Source: Candidatus Omnitrophota bacterium
Lineage (GTDB): Bacteria > Omnitrophota > Gorgyraeia > 2-01-FULL-45-10
Length of the DNA stretch: 9,624 nt
Reading direction: 5' to 3'
Assembly (NCBI GenBank): GCA_023818895.1
Contig: JAMWCX010000005.1
Span: 1-9,624, forward strand
Shown here: piece after piece, positions 1,605 to 7,829 of the stretch
How positions within the stretch are numbered: the first letter of the stretch is position 1
Layout: every line of letters begins with the position of its first letter
Made by a program: the position numbers and the translations under genes
Notes under the pieces: model-generated
Database searches by the model: none
Told to the model about the DNA's origin: nothing
The model's input: only the letters and a program-made list of their open reading frames with translations

Positions 1605-3710
1605 TTGCCGTTACTGATAGCCATCATATCCTTCCTTTCCCTACAGCTTTTGACCGCTTGCATTTGGGCACAGCCACCTGCTCCACCCGCGGGAGCGGTG
1701 CAGTCTGCCTTACGGGAGACCACTAGAGATGTTCGCGGCAAAGTTGAAGAAAAGCTCGAAGAACGGCCTACCAAGCCGCCGCAACTAAAGGAAGAAATAG
1801 CTGAAGAGGTTGTGGAAGGGCCTAAATTTCTGGCCAAAAAGATAGAGCTTGTGGGGGTCAAGAGCTTTCCCGTAGAGGAGTTTTCGAAACTTGTCCAGAA
1901 GTATGAGAATAGGGAAGTTTCGATAGCTGAACTTAAGATACTGGCTAAAGAAATAGAAAGAGATTATCTAAGGAAGGGTGTGATAGCCGCCTGTTTTATA
2001 CCGCCGCAGGATGTCAAAGAGGGAGTTGTTTCGATGCGGGTGGTGGAAGCCAAGATGGGAGAACTGCAGATAAAACAGGGTAAATACTTTTCAAAGAAAA
2101 GGACAGAATATTACTGGAGAATTCCTGAGAATGAGGTGTTAAGATACGATCGTATATCCCGAAGCCTGCAATTCATGAATAAAAATCCTGACAGGAATGT
2201 CAAGGCTGCTCTTCACGCCGGCAAGAAACCGGAGACTACCGATGTTCTGCTTGATGTAGCTACGAATTTCCCGTTGCATGTAACGGCTACACTTGACAAC
2301 GAAGGTGCCCCCTCCACGGGCAAGATAAGAAGTGGAGTCGGATTCGTCGAGAATAATTTTGTCGGCCTTGATGATACCCTTCTGGGTGGTTATACCGGCG
2401 GCAAGAATTTCGGCGGCATATATGTATACCACCGCGTTCCAATAACCAATTTCGGAACGACCATCCTATACGGCTACAGCCAAACCCGCTCATTCCCCAA
2501 GAAAGATTATGCCCCCTTTGAGATAAGCTCAAGACAGGAAAACTATAGCGTGTTCCTTTATCAAGACCTATTCTATAAGGACGAATACAAAGGCGAAGTC
2601 TCCGCTGGTGTGGATATGAGCAACAAACGGGTGGTATCTGGTGCTGGAGGCGACCTTAATGTCGATAGGCTCAGGGTGCTGAGCGGCTCATTTACCCTGA
2701 TAGGCAAAGGAATGGGGAATTCGACGAGCATAAAGCCCTCAATATATCAGGGCTTGAACTGGTTGGGCGCTCGAAGGCAGAGTCGATTTTCTTCTCGCCA
2801 GGCGCAGAATACCTTTACCAAGGCGACTTTAAATATGAACTTCAGACAAGCGTTGGTGAAGAACTTCCAGGCCAGCGTAAAATTCAACGGACAATGGGCC
2901 TCGGAAAAACTTATGCCGCAACAGGAGATGTATCTTGGAGGCATAGATTCGATCAGGGGTTATCCTTCCGGCGACTACCTTGCGGATAGCGGTTTTTATT
3001 CAAACTGGGAACTTTTAGTCCCGGCCTTCTTCCTACCAGAATGGGTAAGGATACCATACGGTGAGAGGCCGCTTAAGGATGAGATAACAGGCGTCGTATT
3101 CTTCGATTGGGGCTACGGAATGAAAAGAGGGAATATCCAAGGTGAGCAGACATCTCGCAGGATGGCATCGGTTGGCATTGGCGGCAGGGTCAGGCTTCTG
3201 AATCAGGCCATGCTGAGAGTTGAATGGGGTGCGCCGCTCGATCCTCTCGTGAATGGTCCCCTTACGGAATGGAGCCGTTCGCGCGTTCATGTCTCGCTTG
3301 ATTTTCAGGATGATCTGCCGGAGGAGGTTGAGCGTTTCCAAAAAGTCCAAAAGGAAGAGTACATGAAGGATGCCGCCTGGAAAATAGTGAATGATGAGAT
3401 GAAAAATCCTAATAGCCCTTTGCGCGCCGCTATATATAAGTATTTTGCGAAAGCAAAGCATGCCCAGGCCAAGGGGGATTTAGAGTCTGCGCGTGAAAAT
3501 TACGGTAAAGTTATTTCTATAGGGGAGAATGTTTATCGTCAGGCCGAGGCGTATGTTAGAGAAAGCTACAAACAGATAGATGCCCTGCATAAACTTGAAG
3601 AAGAAGCGCAAGAATATCTAAAGAAAGGTGATGTGGCGAAAGCCAAAGAAGCTTGGCATAAGATCATTGAAGAAGGGAAACCAAAGCCGCTCGTTCTGGA
3701 ATTTATATAA
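1605..3710 (+). CDS. ShlB/FhaC/HecB-family TpsB outer-membrane transporter (POTRA domains plus Omp85-type barrel) with a 134-aa C-terminal helical extension
   Basis: Signal peptide ...LLIAIISFLSLQLLTACIWAQ. POTRA-like region IELVGVKSFPVEEFSKLV...DYLRKGVIAACFIPPQDVKEGVVSMRVVEAKMG. Barrel region LDNEGAPSTGKIRSGVGFVENNFVGLDDTL.... Conserved Omp85 loop-6 motif GGIDSIRGYPSG. The barrel ends with an aromatic residue, RVHVSLDF, followed by an extra tail (nt 3306-3707). The true start may be the non-canonical CTG 1581 or ATT 1578 (see findings). Confidence 0.9.
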   Translation: MPLLIAIISFLSLQLLTACIWAQPPAPPAGAVQSALRETTRDVRGKVEEKLEERPTKPPQLKEEIAEEVVEGPKFLAKKIELVGVKSFPVEEFSKLVQKYENREVSIAELKILAKEIERDYLRKGVIAACFIPPQDVKEGVVSMRVVEAKMGELQIKQGKYFSKKRTEYYWRIPENEVLRYDRISRSLQFMNKNPDRNVKAALHAGKKPETTDVLLDVATNFPLHVTATLDNEGAPSTGKIRSGVGFVENNFVGLDDTLLGGYTGGKNFGGIYVYHRVPITNFGTTILYGYSQTRSFPKKDYAPFEISSRQENYSVFLYQDLFYKDEYKGEVSAGVDMSNKRVVSGAGGDLNVDRLRVLSGSFTLIGKGMGNSTSIKPSIYQGLNWLGARRQSRFSSRQAQNTFTKATLNMNFRQALVKNFQASVKFNGQWASEKLMPQQEMYLGGIDSIRGYPSGDYLADSGFYSNWELLVPAFFLPEWVRIPYGERPLKDEITGVVFFDWGYGMKRGNIQGEQTSRRMASVGIGGRVRLLNQAMLRVEWGAPLDPLVNGPLTEWSRSRVHVSLDFQDDLPEEVERFQKVQKEEYMKDAAWKIVNDEMKNPNSPLRAAIYKYFAKAKHAQAKGDLESARENYGKVISIGENVYRQAEAYVRESYKQIDALHKLEEEAQEYLKKGDVAKAKEAWHKIIEEGKPKPLVLEFI

Positions 3711-3743
3711 TTGTATATGAATTTTTAGGGAAGGAATGGTGAA

Positions 3744-4952
3744 ATGACCAAAATAAAGATATTAGTCATAACCACGGTGATGTGCGCTTTTGCGCTTGGC
3801 AGTGTTTGGGCTCAAGGAACATCGGAGGGTTCGCGACAGGAATCTGCGAATCAGGTAAGACTGGAAGTGAGCGATAAGATTCTTGATAAAGATTTGCCGT
3901 CATATAAGACGAATCTCAAAGAGATAGTTCGCGAAGCCGAATATAATCTAAAACGGATAGACGGCACCCTTAGAGAGAGGGATAACGAAAAAATCGCTAA
4001 AGAAAAGTTTGAAAGGGCCAACGAACTTGTTAAAGAAGGTAAGTTTGAAGAAGCCAAAAATGAATATGAGGCAGCTAAAAAACTTACAACTAACATGGAC
4101 TTCAAGAGAACGATTAAAGAAAGCGAGCAAAAAATAGCCTCTAAAGCGAATGAACAGGAGCGCGACCGGCTGGCTAAAGAAAGGATGCAGGCAGGCGCCG
4201 GGGCCAAAGAAATAATTACAAAAAAAACCTCCGAAGAGGGGAAGGTTGTTGCGCAACCAATTGTAGAGAAAGAAGTTAGGACTAAGCCTGCTGCAAAGAA
4301 GCAACCCGCCGCGCCAGTAGTCACTGAAAAGCGGTACGGTACCGAGGTAGGTATGAAGAGTCGGGTTGACAAGGGCGTTATTAGTGCCACTCCGAGCGCG
4401 AAGAAGGCGACGTCTGTTAAACAGGTAACGTCGGTGAAGGTGGTCGATCAGGCTGAAGCTAAAGCGAAGGCGGAAGTAGAGGCTAAAGCGCGCGAAGAGG
4501 CCGCCGTTAAGGCCAGGTTGGAGGCCGAAGCAAAAGCCAGGGAAGAAGCTGCCGCAAAGGCGAGGATGGAGGCCGAAACAAGAGCGCGCGAAGAAGCCGC
4601 TGCAAGGGCGAAGGCCGAGGCTGAAGCGAAGGCAAGGGCAGAAGCAGAGGCTAAAGCTAAGGCTGAAGCGGAAGCGAAGGCAAGAGAGGCCGCCGCGGCC
4701 GCCAAGGCAGCGGCAGAAGCGCCGAAACCGGCGCCAGCCGTTGTCTCTACACCGGCACCCGCAGCGGCTCCGAGTAAGACTGTGGCGGAAACCGAAGATA
4801 TATCCGGCCTTTACAGGGAGGCGGTTTCCTTATACTGGGATAATAAATATGAAGAAGCGAAGGCCAAGTTTGAGCAGGTTCAGAAGATAGCTTCTGATTA
4901 CGCGCGAACTTCTTATTATCTCGGCCGGATTAAGGAGAAGTTGGGGAAGTAG
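3744..4952 (+). CDS. Secreted coiled-coil protein with an Ala/Glu/Lys-rich repeat core and TPR-like helical ends (hypothetical; TPS-locus accessory)
   Basis: SD AAGGA lies 8 nt upstream of ATG 3744, and the gap after tpsB is only 33 nt with no terminator. Signal peptide MTKIKILVITTVMCAFALGSVWA/QG. Long charged helical sequence with an EAKAREEAAxKAR repeat core. The C-terminal YREAVSLYWDNKYEEAKAKFEQVQKI...YYLGRI is TPR-like. Confidence 0.8.
   Translation: MTKIKILVITTVMCAFALGSVWAQGTSEGSRQESANQVRLEVSDKILDKDLPSYKTNLKEIVREAEYNLKRIDGTLRERDNEKIAKEKFERANELVKEGKFEEAKNEYEAAKKLTTNMDFKRTIKESEQKIASKANEQERDRLAKERMQAGAGAKEIITKKTSEEGKVVAQPIVEKEVRTKPAAKKQPAAPVVTEKRYGTEVGMKSRVDKGVISATPSAKKATSVKQVTSVKVVDQAEAKAKAEVEAKAREEAAVKARLEAEAKAREEAAAKARMEAETRAREEAAARAKAEAEAKARAEAEAKAKAEAEAKAREAAAAAKAAAEAPKPAPAVVSTPAPAAAPSKTVAETEDISGLYREAVSLYWDNKYEEAKAKFEQVQKIASDYARTSYYLGRIKEKLGK
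4452..4721 (+). repeat. Intragenic low-complexity tandem repeat encoding (E-A-K/R-A)n helices, with an imperfect period of about 48 nt
   Basis: Translation AEAKAKAEVEAKAREEAAVKARLEAEAKAREEAAAKARMEAETRAREEAAARAKAEAEAKARAEAEAKAKAEAEAKAREAAAAAKAAAEA. This region produces the antisense shadow ORF 4448..4705. Confidence 0.85.
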
Positions 4953-5397
4953 GTTTTTCTTCCTTTGGCAGGTTTTCCGATATTCTTTTTAAAATGTTGA
5001 TGTTCTCAGGATTTTCAGCGATGAGCCGTATATAACGGTCCATCGCTTTATTTTGTAAATAAAGACCCTTTTCCCACCTGAGATAACTCTTTTTACCAAC
5101 GCCCAAAAGGTCTGCCATCTCTTCTTGTGTGTAACCCAACTTTTGACGTATTTCCTTTAGTTGTTCCATAGTTAGAAGGCCGCGTTTTTTGTGTTTTTCA
5201 GCTTGAACGCGGTTTAAGGCTTCTTTTGGCAGGAACTCCTCTTTACATTTATTGCATCTTTTGATATTTAGATTTTTAACAACGAGTTTAATATTACGAG
5301 TTCCTTCCCGGAAATATGTCTCATGATCTGATATCTCGTCTTCCAGATATCCATCATTGCACAGCGGGCATTTTACTTTTTCTTTATTTTCAGGCAT
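4930..5397 (-). CDS. MqsA-family zinc-ribbon plus XRE-type HTH protein (antitoxin-like transcriptional regulator), with no adjacent toxin gene
   Basis: From ATG 5397: MPENKEKVKCPLCNDGYLEDEISDHETYFREGTRNIKLVVKNLNIKRCNKCKEEF, which has CxxC...CxxC. The HTH is LTMEQLKEIRQKLGYTQEEMADLLGVGKKSYLRWEKGLYLQNKAMDRYIRLIAENPENINIL. The layout is collinear with E. coli MqsA. The upstream TTG 5448 would add an implausible 17 aa. The 3' end overlaps the convergent gene by 23 nt. Confidence 0.85.
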   Translation of the reverse strand: MPENKEKVKCPLCNDGYLEDEISDHETYFREGTRNIKLVVKNLNIKRCNKCKEEFLPKEALNRVQAEKHKKRGLLTMEQLKEIRQKLGYTQEEMADLLGVGKKSYLRWEKGLYLQNKAMDRYIRLIAENPENINILKRISENLPKEEKPTSPTSP

Positions 5398-5409
5398 ATT
5401 ATCTTTTTT

Positions 5410-5425
5410 GGTATCAATTGATACC
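5410..5425. promoter_or_regulatory. Perfect 16-bp palindrome, a candidate operator in the MqsA-like gene's leader
   Basis: GGTATCAATTGATACC equals its own reverse complement. It lies between the predicted -10 (5435-5430) and ATG 5397 on the minus strand. Confidence 0.6.
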
Positions 5426-5429
5426 GACA

Positions 5430-5458
5430 AATATATCACTAAAATCAAGTTTTGGCAA
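5430..5458 (-). promoter_or_regulatory. sigma70-type promoter for the MqsA-like gene
   Basis: On the minus strand: TTGCCA (5458-5453), 17-nt spacer, TATATT (5435-5430). Confidence 0.55.
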
Positions 5459-5513
5459 GACCAACGATCTGAAATGTTAGGAATAGTTGGGAACTAGAGA
5501 CGGGTAGGAACTG

Positions 5514-5574
5514 TGGAGACGGCTTCCAATTTATGCTAGTAGCGACTTCTAGATAGAATTGGAAACCGTCTCTG
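5514..5574. repeat. Inverted-repeat pair of the GGAGRCGGTTTCCAA motif family (long hairpin or palindromic element)
   Basis: Arms tggagacggcttccaatt (5514-5531) and aattggaaaccgtctctg (5557-5574). Of 18 positions there is 1 mismatch and 2 G-U pairs. The spacer is 25 nt. A half-copy, agagacggg, lies at 5496-5504. Confidence 0.85.
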
Positions 5575-5678
5575 GCTATGGCTTATAAGAAGATCATCAT
5601 ATTCGGGATTTTCACCAGTGCAAATTCGAGAATTTTAATGATATATCGGTTAAATATAAAAAAGGAAGATATAATATA

Positions 5679-5706
5679 TTGACAATTAAAATAGTTAAGA
5701 TATACT
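5679..5706 (+). promoter_or_regulatory. Strong sigma70-type promoter driving the long tpsA1 leader
   Basis: -35 TTGACA (5679-5684), 16-nt spacer, -10 TATACT (5701-5706). An A/T-rich UP-like stretch lies upstream. The predicted TSS is near 5713, about 320 nt before the tpsA1 start. Confidence 0.7.
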
Positions 5707-5759
5707 TAAATTGTAAAAAGGAGTTCTTTACAATAAGGAGTTCGCTTATTCTCTTAAGC

Positions 5760-5910
5760 GATAATGGCAAACTTAGCGAAAGCTAAGGACGCCCTGCACC
5801 CATACGTGGTACAGGGCCGGGAATCAGACGAAATTCTGATTCACGGCAAAGCTCTAGAGCCTAACCTCCGATGAGAGTCGGAGCATGGCAGTCAGTTGCC
5901 GAAATAAGAG
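5760..5910 (+). promoter_or_regulatory. Candidate riboswitch aptamer, c-di-GMP-I (GEMM-I)-like with a two-hairpin insertion
   Basis: GGCAAAC (5766-5772), then hairpin cttagc-GAAA-gctaag (5772-5787), then GACGC (5788-5792). Two extra hairpins follow (5792-5816 and 5821-5842). Then ACG-GCAAAGC (5843-5852), receptor-like CCTAAC (5860-5865) and CATGG (5884-5888) flanking hairpin ctccga/tcggag (5866-5883), and finally CAG-TCAG-TTGCCGAAA (5889-5904). Compared from memory with the V. cholerae Vc2 aptamer (GGCAAACC-auuc-GAAA-gagu-GGGACGCAAAGCC...CCUAAACC...GGUAGGUAGCGGGGUUACCGA). Confidence 0.5.
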
Positions 5911-5925
5911 ATTTTTTGTTTCTGG

Positions 5926-5976
5926 CGGGACAGTTTCCTTCTTGATAAAAAATACAACTCATAGGAAACTATCCCG
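5926..5976 (+). repeat. Long leader hairpin whose arms are diverged copies of the GGAGRCGGTTTCCAA family
   Basis: cgggacagtttcct (5926-5939) pairs with aggaaactatcccg (5963-5976). 13 of 14 positions pair. The loop is 23 nt and A-rich. Confidence 0.7.
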
Positions 5977-5984
5977 GTCGCGAT

Positions 5985-6027
5985 ACCCGCGGTTTCGGCA
6001 ATTGTGTCGAGCTGCGGGTTTTTGTTT
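5985..6027 (+). terminator. Intrinsic terminator (attenuator) immediately upstream of the tpsA1 RBS
   Basis: Lower stem acccgcgg (5985-5992) / ctgcgggt (6012-6019). Upper stem ttcggc (5994-5999) / gtcgag (6006-6011). Loop aattgt. U-tract tttt-g-ttt (6020-6027). The SD aagg (6028-6031) and ATG 6035/6041 follow directly. Confidence 0.8.
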
Positions 6028-6034
6028 AAGGCGG

Positions 6035-7705
6035 ATGAAAATGAAAAAAAATAAACAATTTAAAAAATGGACGCAACGCGAGAAGAAAAATGCGACGGTG
6101 TTTTTCTGCCTGGTCGCTGTTTTCTTTATGAATCTTTTATACGCTAATAGCATCGCTGCGCTCCCTAAGGATTATGAAGTCGCCGCCGGCAGTGCCGAAT
6201 TTCATGTGCAGGAAAATACCCTTACCGTAACTGCCTCTGACAAAGCTATCATAAATTATAAGTCCTTCGATATTGCACAGAATGAGAAGGTTATATTCAA
6301 TCTGCCTACGACTACGAGCGCAGTACTTAACAGGGTTCATTCTCCGGATCCGACGAATATACAGGGCCTTCTGCAGTGTAACGGAATCTTTATACTAGTT
6401 AATCAGTCCGGCATATACGTGGCCCCTGGCGCCAACGTGAACGCGGCGAGCATGATCCTTTCAACAAGAGACATCAATAATTCAGACTTCCTGGCCGGTC
6501 GGTATTCCTTCCACAAGGTATCCCAGAATGGGTTCGACATGTTGCTCCTTAATGAGGGCAATCTCGCCGTTTCGAAAGGCGGTTTCCTTGCCCTGGTGGC
6601 GGGCGCGATAGAGAATAAGGGTGTCATAACCGCCAGATCGGGGACGATTGCTCTGGCAGCAGGAAATGCCGTTAAGTTCGAGATAGCCGGAAACAATATG
6701 ATCTCGGTGGCGGTCACGGAGCCTGTCGCCGAGCAGATCCTGGATTTTGAAGGCAAGCCTGTTAAGGATCAGATCAAGAACACCGGCTCTCTTAACGCGG
6801 AAGGCGGCACTATTATACTTAAAGCCGAAAGCGTTGCCGATATCTTCATAAACGCGGTCAATCTTGAGGGAGTGGTCAATGCTGAGAGGGTCGAATGCAA
6901 GGATGGAGGTGTAAGTATAATCGCAGGCGGCAAGGTTGAGATACCCGCTGAACAGATAATCACAACGCGCCTTGAGGTATTCGCTAAAGAACTCGTAATG
7001 CTGCCGCCACGGATACCTGAGAGAGTCATAGACGGCGACGTCGATGTGAATACGGCTGAGGCGCTTCATATCATGCCGTCAGAACCCGCGCAAGTCATTA
7101 AGGCCGAGGAATCGATAACGATATTTGCCGAGAAGGCGATTGAAGTCGCGTCAACGATAGAAACGCCGACAGTTACGCTGGTATCAGGCGATATGGTAGA
7201 TACGCGCGGCGCCGCCATCGTCCAGGGAACGAATTTTAATTTAAGGGCTAATAGATTCGGAAAGTATGAAACGCCTGTTAAGATACAGGCCGAGAATAGT
7301 TATGTTAATGGATTTAATAAAAATATAGATATTCGTGAGGCATTAGGAATCGGCACGTCCTTTTTGATACGCGGGCCTCCGGATGAGGGCTTTGGAGCCA
7401 TTGAATACAACCGAAACCTTTCGCGTCTTACGCTGGAGGCGGAAGATGTAATTCTTTCCGTAACAAATCCTGTTTATGTAGATGGTCATTTGATACTTTC
7501 CAATTTCCTGGGCTTGATTCCTTTTATATATCTTTTATCCAAAGGTAATAATATCGTTTTCCCTATTGTGAATGGAGTAAGTCTCCTGCCATTTTTCGTG
7601 GCGCACTTAATCGTGATTAAAACTATGAGTAGGGCTGGTAGGATATGCGCCGGATTATGCGCGGTTGGGATACGACAGGAGCTTAAATTAGTAGAAAGGG
7701 GGTGA
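6035..7705 (+). CDS. TpsA-family exoprotein, short paralog (filamentous-haemagglutinin N-terminal / haemagglutination-activity TPS domain); 556 aa
   Basis: Signal peptide MKMKKNKQFKKWTQREKKNATVFFCLVAVFFMNLLYANSIAA. TPS domain NYKSFDIAQNEKVIFNLPTTTSAVLNRVHSPDPTNIQGLLQCNGIFILVNQSGIYVAPGANVNAASMILSTRDI. The ORF-track start at 5885 would translate through the structured leader and terminator and has no SD. ATG 6035 or 6041 follows aaggcgg. The last 70 aa or so are atypical (see findings). Confidence 0.85.
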   Translation: MKMKKNKQFKKWTQREKKNATVFFCLVAVFFMNLLYANSIAALPKDYEVAAGSAEFHVQENTLTVTASDKAIINYKSFDIAQNEKVIFNLPTTTSAVLNRVHSPDPTNIQGLLQCNGIFILVNQSGIYVAPGANVNAASMILSTRDINNSDFLAGRYSFHKVSQNGFDMLLLNEGNLAVSKGGFLALVAGAIENKGVITARSGTIALAAGNAVKFEIAGNNMISVAVTEPVAEQILDFEGKPVKDQIKNTGSLNAEGGTIILKAESVADIFINAVNLEGVVNAERVECKDGGVSIIAGGKVEIPAEQIITTRLEVFAKELVMLPPRIPERVIDGDVDVNTAEALHIMPSEPAQVIKAEESITIFAEKAIEVASTIETPTVTLVSGDMVDTRGAAIVQGTNFNLRANRFGKYETPVKIQAENSYVNGFNKNIDIREALGIGTSFLIRGPPDEGFGAIEYNRNLSRLTLEAEDVILSVTNPVYVDGHLILSNFLGLIPFIYLLSKGNNIVFPIVNGVSLLPFFVAHLIVIKTMSRAGRICAGLCAVGIRQELKLVERG

Positions 7706-7760
7706 TGAAAATGTTGCGTAGCAAATGGCAAAAAATAGGTTCCAGGCATGATGATGACGG

Positions 7761-7829
7761 GAGGCGGTTTCCAAGGTGTAGTGGAGGCGGTTTCCAAGTT
7801 GTGGTGGAGACGGTTTCCAATAGGAGTAG
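7761..7829 (+). repeat. Three tandem 23-bp direct repeats of the GGAGRCGGTTTCCAA family upstream of tpsA2
   Basis: gaggcggtttccaaggtgtagtg (7761-7783), gaggcggtttccaagttgtggtg (7784-7806), gagacggtttccaataggagtag (7807-7829). Units 1 and 2 differ at 2 of 23 positions. The 14-15 nt core is conserved in unit 3. Confidence 0.9.

Follow-up and report, generated by a model that had tools for sequence, protein, structure and literature searches.

This study concerns a short repeat, hereafter the box, found near the two-partner secretion (TPS) genes of a Candidatus Omnitrophota bacterium. The window, meaning the whole stretch of DNA that we analyzed, is a complete contig of 9624 nt (C3) from a genome (G000) of 1.56 Mb that is distributed over five contigs and is 93.6% complete. 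The forward strand of the window encodes MscL (425-748), a TpsB protein with POTRA_2 and ShlB domains (1605-3710), a tetratricopeptide repeat (TPR)/Ala-rich protein (3744-4952) and two TpsA proteins, tpsA1 (6035-7705) and tpsA2 (7867 to beyond 9624), the second of which runs off the contig. The reverse strand carries a FecR-like gene (940-1428) and a gene for an MqsA-like zinc-ribbon helix-turn-helix (HTH) protein (4930-5448, likely start at ATG 5397), with its promoter at 5458-5430. On the forward strand, tpsA1 is preceded by a sigma-70-like promoter (TTGACA, 16 nt, TATACT; 5679-5706) and a cyclic di-GMP-I (c-di-GMP-I) riboswitch leader (5756-5903). Two matches to the c-di-GMP-I model make up this leader, a half-aptamer (5756-5803, 33 bits) and a full aptamer (5805-5903, 40.8 bits), and the orthologous leader of G001, a genome from the same genus, is similarly composite.

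Repeat copies in the source genome

A search of the window with the pattern GGAGRCGGTTTCCAA, allowing three mismatches, returned seven matches versus 0.50 expected, a number reached in none of 200 shuffles. Five of them are good copies with at most one mismatch, at 5515 (+), 5559 (-) and 7760, 7783 and 7806 (+), confirming the repeat family that had been proposed from the sequence of the window alone (the original prediction). The two weaker matches lie in coding DNA, at 4817 (two mismatches) and 8652 (three mismatches). The first two good copies, GGAGACGGCTTCCAA (5515-5529, +) and AGAGACGGTTTCCAA (5559-5573, -), each with one mismatch, form an inverted doublet of 63 nt (5513-5575) with a 29-nt spacer and 44 nt from start to start, about 104 nt upstream of the tpsA1 promoter. 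This doublet resembles a REPIN, a hairpin made of two repetitive extragenic palindromic (REP) sequences. It is an inverted repeat with 27-nt arms (5516-5542 and 5546-5572) and, as single-stranded DNA, folds with -15.9 kcal/mol (z = -4.6). The remaining three copies (7760-7774, 7783-7797 and 7806-7820, +) have no mismatch and are exactly 23 nt apart, as originally predicted. They belong to a head-to-tail array of three 23-nt units, each with a 15-nt box and an 8-nt spacer (7760-7828, +), located in the 161-nt spacer between tpsA1 and tpsA2, 39-107 nt before ATG 7867. The RNA of this array has a predicted fold of -28.6 kcal/mol (z = -3.8 versus shuffles). The Rfam search gave no match for the repeats themselves.

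A second public assembly, GCA_023818765.1, matches the window with 100% identity over 9303 nt and reaches 999 nt further. The reading frame stays open across the array (3 x 23 nt = 69 nt), and this assembly calls a 639-aa gene there. A coding extension of tpsA2 through the array is disfavoured because ATG 7867 has AGGAGG 8 nt upstream and because it gives a leader of 42 residues up to the LP motif, matching those of tpsA1 (44) and of tpsA3 (42), a further tpsA gene of the same genome. The best reading of the array is thus a non-coding one, and the 639-aa gene call calls for caution, as its part through the array is probably not coding.

Over the whole genome, seven copies with at most one mismatch were found, five of the seven being in the window, and the reversed control gave one. 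Outside the window, a doublet on contig C5 (G000:C5:715419-715460; TCAGGAACCCGTCTCC, 10 nt, AGAGACGGTTTCCAA) is located upstream of tpsA3, the third riboswitch-controlled tpsA gene. More precisely, this doublet, which folds with -26.7 kcal/mol (z = -5.3), comes about 80 nt after the stop of an open reading frame (ORF) of 5711 codons made of GLUG repeats (G000:C5:715539-732676) and before the leader of the 2336-aa TpsA. The tpsA3 leader, in which a promoter is combined with a c-di-GMP-I riboswitch (57.5 bits) and a terminator, is paralogous to that of tpsA1, and a comparison of the leaders indicated that the tpsA1 promoter is kept in both the tpsA3 and the G001 leaders. Whereas the tpsA1 leader is composite, that of tpsA3 contains one compact aptamer. 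No copy was present upstream of the three other tpsA genes of G000.

A sensitive search for clustered matches in G000 revealed two extra, diverged clusters between unrelated genes, with none in the reversed control. One (C1:43524-43582), with three boxes of which two are 23 nt apart, resembles a terminator hairpin followed by a T-run, while the other (C2:43919-43954) reads ATAGACGTTTTCCAAattgtgCTGGAACCTGTCTAC. The genome thus holds five clusters in total, three upstream of tpsA1, tpsA2 and tpsA3 and two at unrelated intergenic sites. With a third doublet on C5, diverged clusters on C1 and C2 and kin in other genomes, the box is not restricted to the DNA around the tpsA genes of the window, as had been thought. 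A copy at C1:33469 codes for the RRFPR (RxxxR) motif where a PilZ-like ORF begins and was therefore treated as a chance match.

A search of the 1.56-Mb genome gave four occurrences of the 11-mer AGGCGGTTTCC, all on the contig studied here. Two occurrences are inside the array, and the other two are coding in different frames, at 4819 in the TPR gene (within 4817-4838) and at 6577 in the TPS domain of tpsA1 (within 6575-6596). At 4817, all three differences from the G001 orthologue shift the G000 sequence towards the repeat motif. These coding copies could be due to chance, to local gene conversion or to the G-type box having arisen locally.

Contig C3 is probably joined to the end of C5, since the continuation of tpsA2 in GCA_023818765.1 (L214) consists of GLUG repeats, like the 5711-codon ORF, which runs off the C5 end. 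Such a join would unite all three good clusters, which precede tpsA1, tpsA2 and tpsA3, in a single TPS super-locus. The same observations also suggest that tpsA2 and the giant ORF on C5 belong to a single TpsA exceeding 6300 aa and that the super-locus was split by the assembly. At the other end, contig C2 begins with 127 nt that are 100% identical, in reverse orientation, to positions 1-127 of the window, and the two contigs probably abut at this shared sequence. A partial tRNA-like sequence is present at 60-117 (tRNA model, 27 bits).

The box and its associated transposase in related Omnitrophota

We compared 60 relatives, including G001, G014 (same family, other genus) and G039 (same order, other family). 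G014 stood out with 14 copies of GGAGACGCTTTCCAA. When position 8 was relaxed and one mismatch allowed, we counted 18 copies in G014 and 32 in G039, spread over many contigs, with one to three in the reversed controls. In G014, the copies form palindromes of approximately 76 nt that read GGAGACGCTTTCCAA, nnnAATC, GGGAAGCTGCCCCC, a loop and then the inverse. The same genome also has head-to-tail sets phased at 23 nt, both at transposase flanks and in other arrays (L036 3521/3544, 4175/4198 and 7680/7703; C41:18503/18526). Many doublets of G039 repeat the other spacing of the window, 44 nt from start to start (C40:8302/8346, C48:4694/4738, C64:17569/17613, C80:10545/10589). Hairpin doublets in these two genomes measure 59-76 nt, and the boxes flank ordinary housekeeping genes as well as a REP-associated tyrosine transposase (RAYT) gene. 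Neither G014 nor G039 has a TPS-domain gene or an MqsA-like homologue (0 matches). Being rich in boxes without TPS genes, these genomes indicate that the box family is independent of tpsA.

The transposase assignment comes from G014, in which two inverted arms enclose an ORF of 162 aa (L036:4175-4879). This ORF matched Y1_Tnp (E = 1.4e-15) and the NCBIfam model REP_Tyr_transpos (NF047646) with 77.2 bits (E = 1.1e-21; cut-off 80), versus 18 bits for the IS200 model, and its sole match in the PDB was TnpA-REP (4ER8). It has both the HUH motif (HIH) and the Tyr region, and a related RAYT copy in G013 (C48) scored 86.3 bits on NF047646, above the cut-off. Inverted variants of the box, including AGAGACGGTGTCCAA and AGAGACGTTTTCCAA and departing from it at one to a few of the 15 positions, flank related RAYT genes in six relatives, namely G014, G039, G010, G013, G005 and G037. 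Relative to the G014 copy, the RAYT of G039 is 67% identical, with inverted box arms on both sides, and those of G010 (70%), G013 (67%) and G005 (65%) are flanked by ACAGACGCTTTCTG / AGAGACGCTTTCCGA, AGAAACGCTTTCCAA and AGAGACGTTTTCCAAgttgtgCTGGAACCTGTACCC, respectively. The most distant one, in G037 (52%), is accompanied by AGAGACGGTGTCCAA, then GGGACACTGCCCC and GGGACAGTGTCT. The arms are 36-61 nt long and contain two or three boxes. Some details tie them to G000: the 13-mer TTTCCAAGTTGTG is common to the G005 arm and the window array, the GTTGTG spacer of the array is the loop of the G005 arm (AGAGACGTTTTCCAAgttgtgCTGG), and this arm is almost the same as the diverged element on C2. The box is amplified in G014, G039 and G037 and was found only at the RAYT flanks in G005, G010 and G013. 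Judging from sequence and arrangement, the box is the repeat partner of one RAYT group across the order.

The arms of these relatives also bear on another hairpin of the window, GGGACAGTTTCC...GGAAACTATCCC (5926-5976), which lies between the riboswitch aptamer and its terminator. Of the original claim that it consists of diverged arms of the repeat, the hairpin itself stands (-20.8 kcal/mol, z = -2.9), and its kinship to the family is plausible, given the likeness of GGGACAGTTTCC to GGGACAGTGTCT, which is the second box in the G037 and G039 RAYT arms. No counterpart was seen in the paralogous tpsA3 leader or the orthologous G001 leader. The hairpin may represent a second-box doublet of the box family that has diverged.

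Beyond the relatives, the exact tandem-pair pattern was absent from 185,579 species genomes and from JGI metagenomes, sets that possibly exclude the records of the source genome. A looser doublet pattern searched on contigs was too permissive and gave mostly chance matches. A match in G051 upstream of c-di-GMP riboswitches was also treated as chance, as it falls within the 3' end of a coding region. In G014 (C38), a different RAYT-like ORF (3680-4111; open frame of 333 aa) is preceded on its own strand, at a distance of about 100 nt, by a c-di-GMP-I riboswitch (3500-3578, 54.7 bits) and may be under second-messenger control.

In G001, the locus is syntenic and comprises the FecR-like gene, tpsB, the 3' end of the TPR-protein gene, the MqsA-like gene, the riboswitch, tpsA1 and the beginning of tpsA2. 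The box was not found in G001. A different REP of the classical GTAG-headed type, GTAGGGCA[CG]GTTTAAAC[CG]TGCCCTAC, is present twice at the site equivalent to the window doublet (L047, G001:C62, 2326-2351 and 2404-2429). This REP occurs at 13 sites in G001 and flanks its own RAYT gene (C5:31459-31869, in the region C5:31357-32262). That the same intergenic site holds two REP families in congeneric genomes points to a permissive landing site rather than a conserved operator. A clean insertion site for the array could not be delimited, the tpsA1-tpsA2 spacers of G000 and G001 being too diverged to align. At the far end of the G001 contig, a group II intron domain match (L047, 7190-7265; RF00029, 51.7 bits) has no counterpart in the window.

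These comparisons bear on the proposal that the MqsA-like HTH protein, or another regulator of the locus, binds the boxes upstream of each tpsA gene and co-regulates these genes. The boxes are indeed close to the HTH gene and precede each of the three tpsA genes, each can be read as a loose GGAR-N5-YTCC half-palindrome, and a spacing of 23 nt approximates two helical turns. However, the box is not conserved with the regulator: G001 keeps the protein (74% identity) in the same synteny without a box, and G014 and G039 are box-rich without a homologue of the protein or TPS genes. Moreover, the promoter of the HTH gene has a perfect 16-bp palindrome of its own, GGTATCAATTGATACC (5411-5426), just downstream of the -10 element, which is outside the box family and is conserved in G001 as GGTATCgtTTGATAC. 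This palindrome, the probable autoregulatory operator of the toxin-less MqsA-like protein, is a better candidate than the boxes, and the reading of the boxes as its operators appears extremely unlikely.

A role as recombination sites around tpsA1 had also been put forward. In a fuller form of this idea, boxes in the same orientation would bracket tpsA1 and tpsA2 and inverted partners would permit deletion, duplication or inversion of tpsA cassettes, leading to phase or antigenic variation. Direct copies at 5515 and 7760-7820 do bracket tpsA1, the probable tpsA2 continuation on C5 is followed by another copy with this orientation, and the tpsA genes are tandem paralogues. Against this, the contig contains no recombinase gene, tpsA1 occupies the same place in G001 without boxes, the two independent assemblies are identical over their shared 9303 nt without a variant, and in G014 and G039 the boxes flank housekeeping genes and a RAYT gene, not cassettes. 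The contig genes, the two assemblies and the G001 synteny constitute a weak test, which lent this proposal no support, and we regard it as very improbable.

Relationship to known repeat families

Several systems resemble the box family in part. RAYT genes have at their flanks either REPs or terminal inverted repeats (TIRs), which also form dimers and clusters (PMC3733652). As in the REPIN-RAYT systems or REPtrons, such as TnpA-REP of Escherichia coli with its REPs and bacterial interspersed mosaic elements (BIMEs) or the REPINs of Pseudomonas, the boxes are short, hairpin-forming extragenic repeats arranged in inverted doublets, and in relatives the same repeat is inverted around a single small Y1/HUH transposase gene. 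This transposase is of RAYT rather than IS200 type, as judged by the scores of the G014 copy, and inverted repeats flank it on both sides in the six relatives named above, not in G000. The population size varies among relatives, some of which have the flanks only, and orphan copies occur where the RAYT is missing, again as in REPtrons. Dispersed, mostly extragenic copies, with hairpin doublets among them, are numerous in G039 (32) and G014 (18), compared with the five clusters of G000, which has no RAYT.

The box family also departs from REPtrons, with a box of 13-15 nt that has a 5-bp mini-stem, a regular 23-nt head-to-tail phasing and no conserved GTAG head. Looking for the GT[AG]G head, we found GTGG or GTAG before three window boxes and before no G014 or G039 box. 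The box family therefore has the defining features of RAYT-associated repeats except for this head, the lack of which brings it nearer to the TIR/TIRYT type. Of the two REP superfamilies surveyed in the literature, head-to-tail dimers are negligible in the CGTC one (PMC3733652). Membership of our repeats in CGTC-type REPs, considered as their reverse strand reads CCGTCTCC, was rejected because the published stems and tails differ.

The TIRYT systems, or TIRtrons (Di Nocera et al., 2013; PMC3733652), consist of a Y1 transposase with long TIRs unrelated to GTAG-headed REPs. The TIRs are moderately abundant as singles, dimers and clusters, and some genomes have only the pair flanking the gene, a situation comparable to that of G005, G010 and G013. 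The repeats studied here agree with this definition in being long non-GTAG inverted repeats around a Y1 transposase that are sometimes amplified, an agreement that concerns the features of the repeat and not the class of the protein. Unlike some TIRs, they have no evident GGGGWSAS motif (the second box of G014 ends in GCCCCC), and their multi-box, 23-nt-phased arm is absent from the description in PMC3733652.

The array could also be compared with another class of phased repeats. Iterons and other phased protein-binding direct repeats are 17-22 bp long, about two helical turns, and the array has three direct repeats with a spacing near 22 bp. Unlike iterons, it is found without a replication initiator or plasmid context, and in relatives its box is inverted, dispersed and located at transposase flanks.

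Origin and possible roles of the boxes

Taken together, we read the boxes of the window as orphan REP/REPIN-type, or TIR-type, repeats from a RAYT-associated family of the order, most likely leftover mobile DNA and not a dedicated switch of the tpsA genes, with a probability of roughly 0.7. Among the options listed in the original prediction, that of a small REP-like element or miniature inverted-repeat transposable element (MITE) is the one upheld, by the same box in the same 23-nt and 44-nt geometries, by its inverted arms at RAYT genes in six relatives and by its dispersal in two genomes without TPS genes. Dozens of scattered copies had been named as the mark of a generic element of this kind, and this is what G014 and G039 contain, unlike G000 with its five clusters.

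In relatives, the box forms inverted arms around the RAYT gene, either single, phased head-to-tail at 23 nt or accompanied by a degenerate inverted second box. In some genomes, the boxes have spread to many intergenic sites as hairpin doublets. By analogy with characterized RAYTs, the transposase would bind and cut the small single-stranded hairpins, thereby copying and spreading them. Searches with Pfam, NCBIfam and tblastn detected no RAYT of any kind in the G000 assembly, and at least one was present in 51 of the 61 genomes searched. With the cognate RAYT missing from this assembly, the boxes are most likely immobile relics. The closest G001 match to the box-associated RAYT group has just 38% identity, so this RAYT type may have been lost before the split between G000 and G001. 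REPIN populations decay once the RAYT is lost (bioRxiv 10.1101/2021.07.10.451892), and the copies left in G000 would likewise persist and decay slowly. The three-unit array probably expanded in place, through slippage or unequal exchange between 23-nt-phased units. Local spread or duplication, within one of the few long stretches of non-coding DNA that this compact genome offers, best accounts for the concentration at the TPS locus. If the boxes affect tpsA expression at all, possibly by hairpins in the mRNA or by extra GGAGG sites in the intercistronic leader, this would be a by-product.

A number of observations weigh against relic status. The three best-preserved clusters of G000 all precede three consecutive tpsA genes, which is very non-random for relics, and the three units of the array are identical or nearly so and do not look decayed. 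No RAYT is present as a maker, although one could be unassembled, given the completeness of the G000 assembly. The GTAG head of classical REPs is lacking and head-to-tail arrays are unusual for REPs. Finally, transposition of the box family and its binding by a RAYT are putative, drawn from sequence and from analogy with known systems.

The first of these observations could also mean that REP-derived boxes were retained for a function at the TPS locus, the doublets, located downstream of tpsA2 and upstream of the promoters, acting as stabilizers of RNA 3' ends or as insulators and the array as a structured, GGAGG-rich leader that tunes tpsA2 translation. The well-preserved clusters are all in the spacers before tpsA1, tpsA2 and tpsA3, the array RNA folds better than shuffles, the strongly folding C5 doublet closely follows the stop of the giant ORF and the C1 cluster has the look of a terminator. 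REPs are thought to influence transcription termination and mRNA stability (PMC3733652). However, the same genes and riboswitch occur in G001 without boxes, and the placement of the G000 boxes with respect to transcripts is inconsistent (one cluster is upstream of a divergent promoter region, one intercistronic and one in a 3' untranslated region), both of which argue against a conserved function. The two doublets also differ in orientation, and the three other tpsA genes of G000 have no boxes. We thus consider co-option rather unlikely. Very improbable, in our opinion, is a variant in which, without their cognate RAYT, the only well-preserved boxes, kept in the same orientation before three consecutive tpsA genes, have become a domesticated REP array that marks cassette boundaries, as points of short homology or recombination or as a shared cis signal. 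If true, the giant adhesin genes could be reshuffled or co-controlled.

With leftover mobile DNA as the preferred reading, the tempting idea that the tpsA genes have an operator or a recombination system dedicated to them is set aside as unsupported. Instead, the repeats are assigned to an order-wide RAYT-associated family in Omnitrophota. We know of no published description of such repeats in this phylum, no literature search having been made for one. The family has unusual traits, namely boxes of 13-15 nt, 23-nt phasing and multi-box arms. Its populations range from copies at the RAYT flanks only, through dozens of copies, to orphans without a RAYT, and could help to study how REPIN populations grow and decay.

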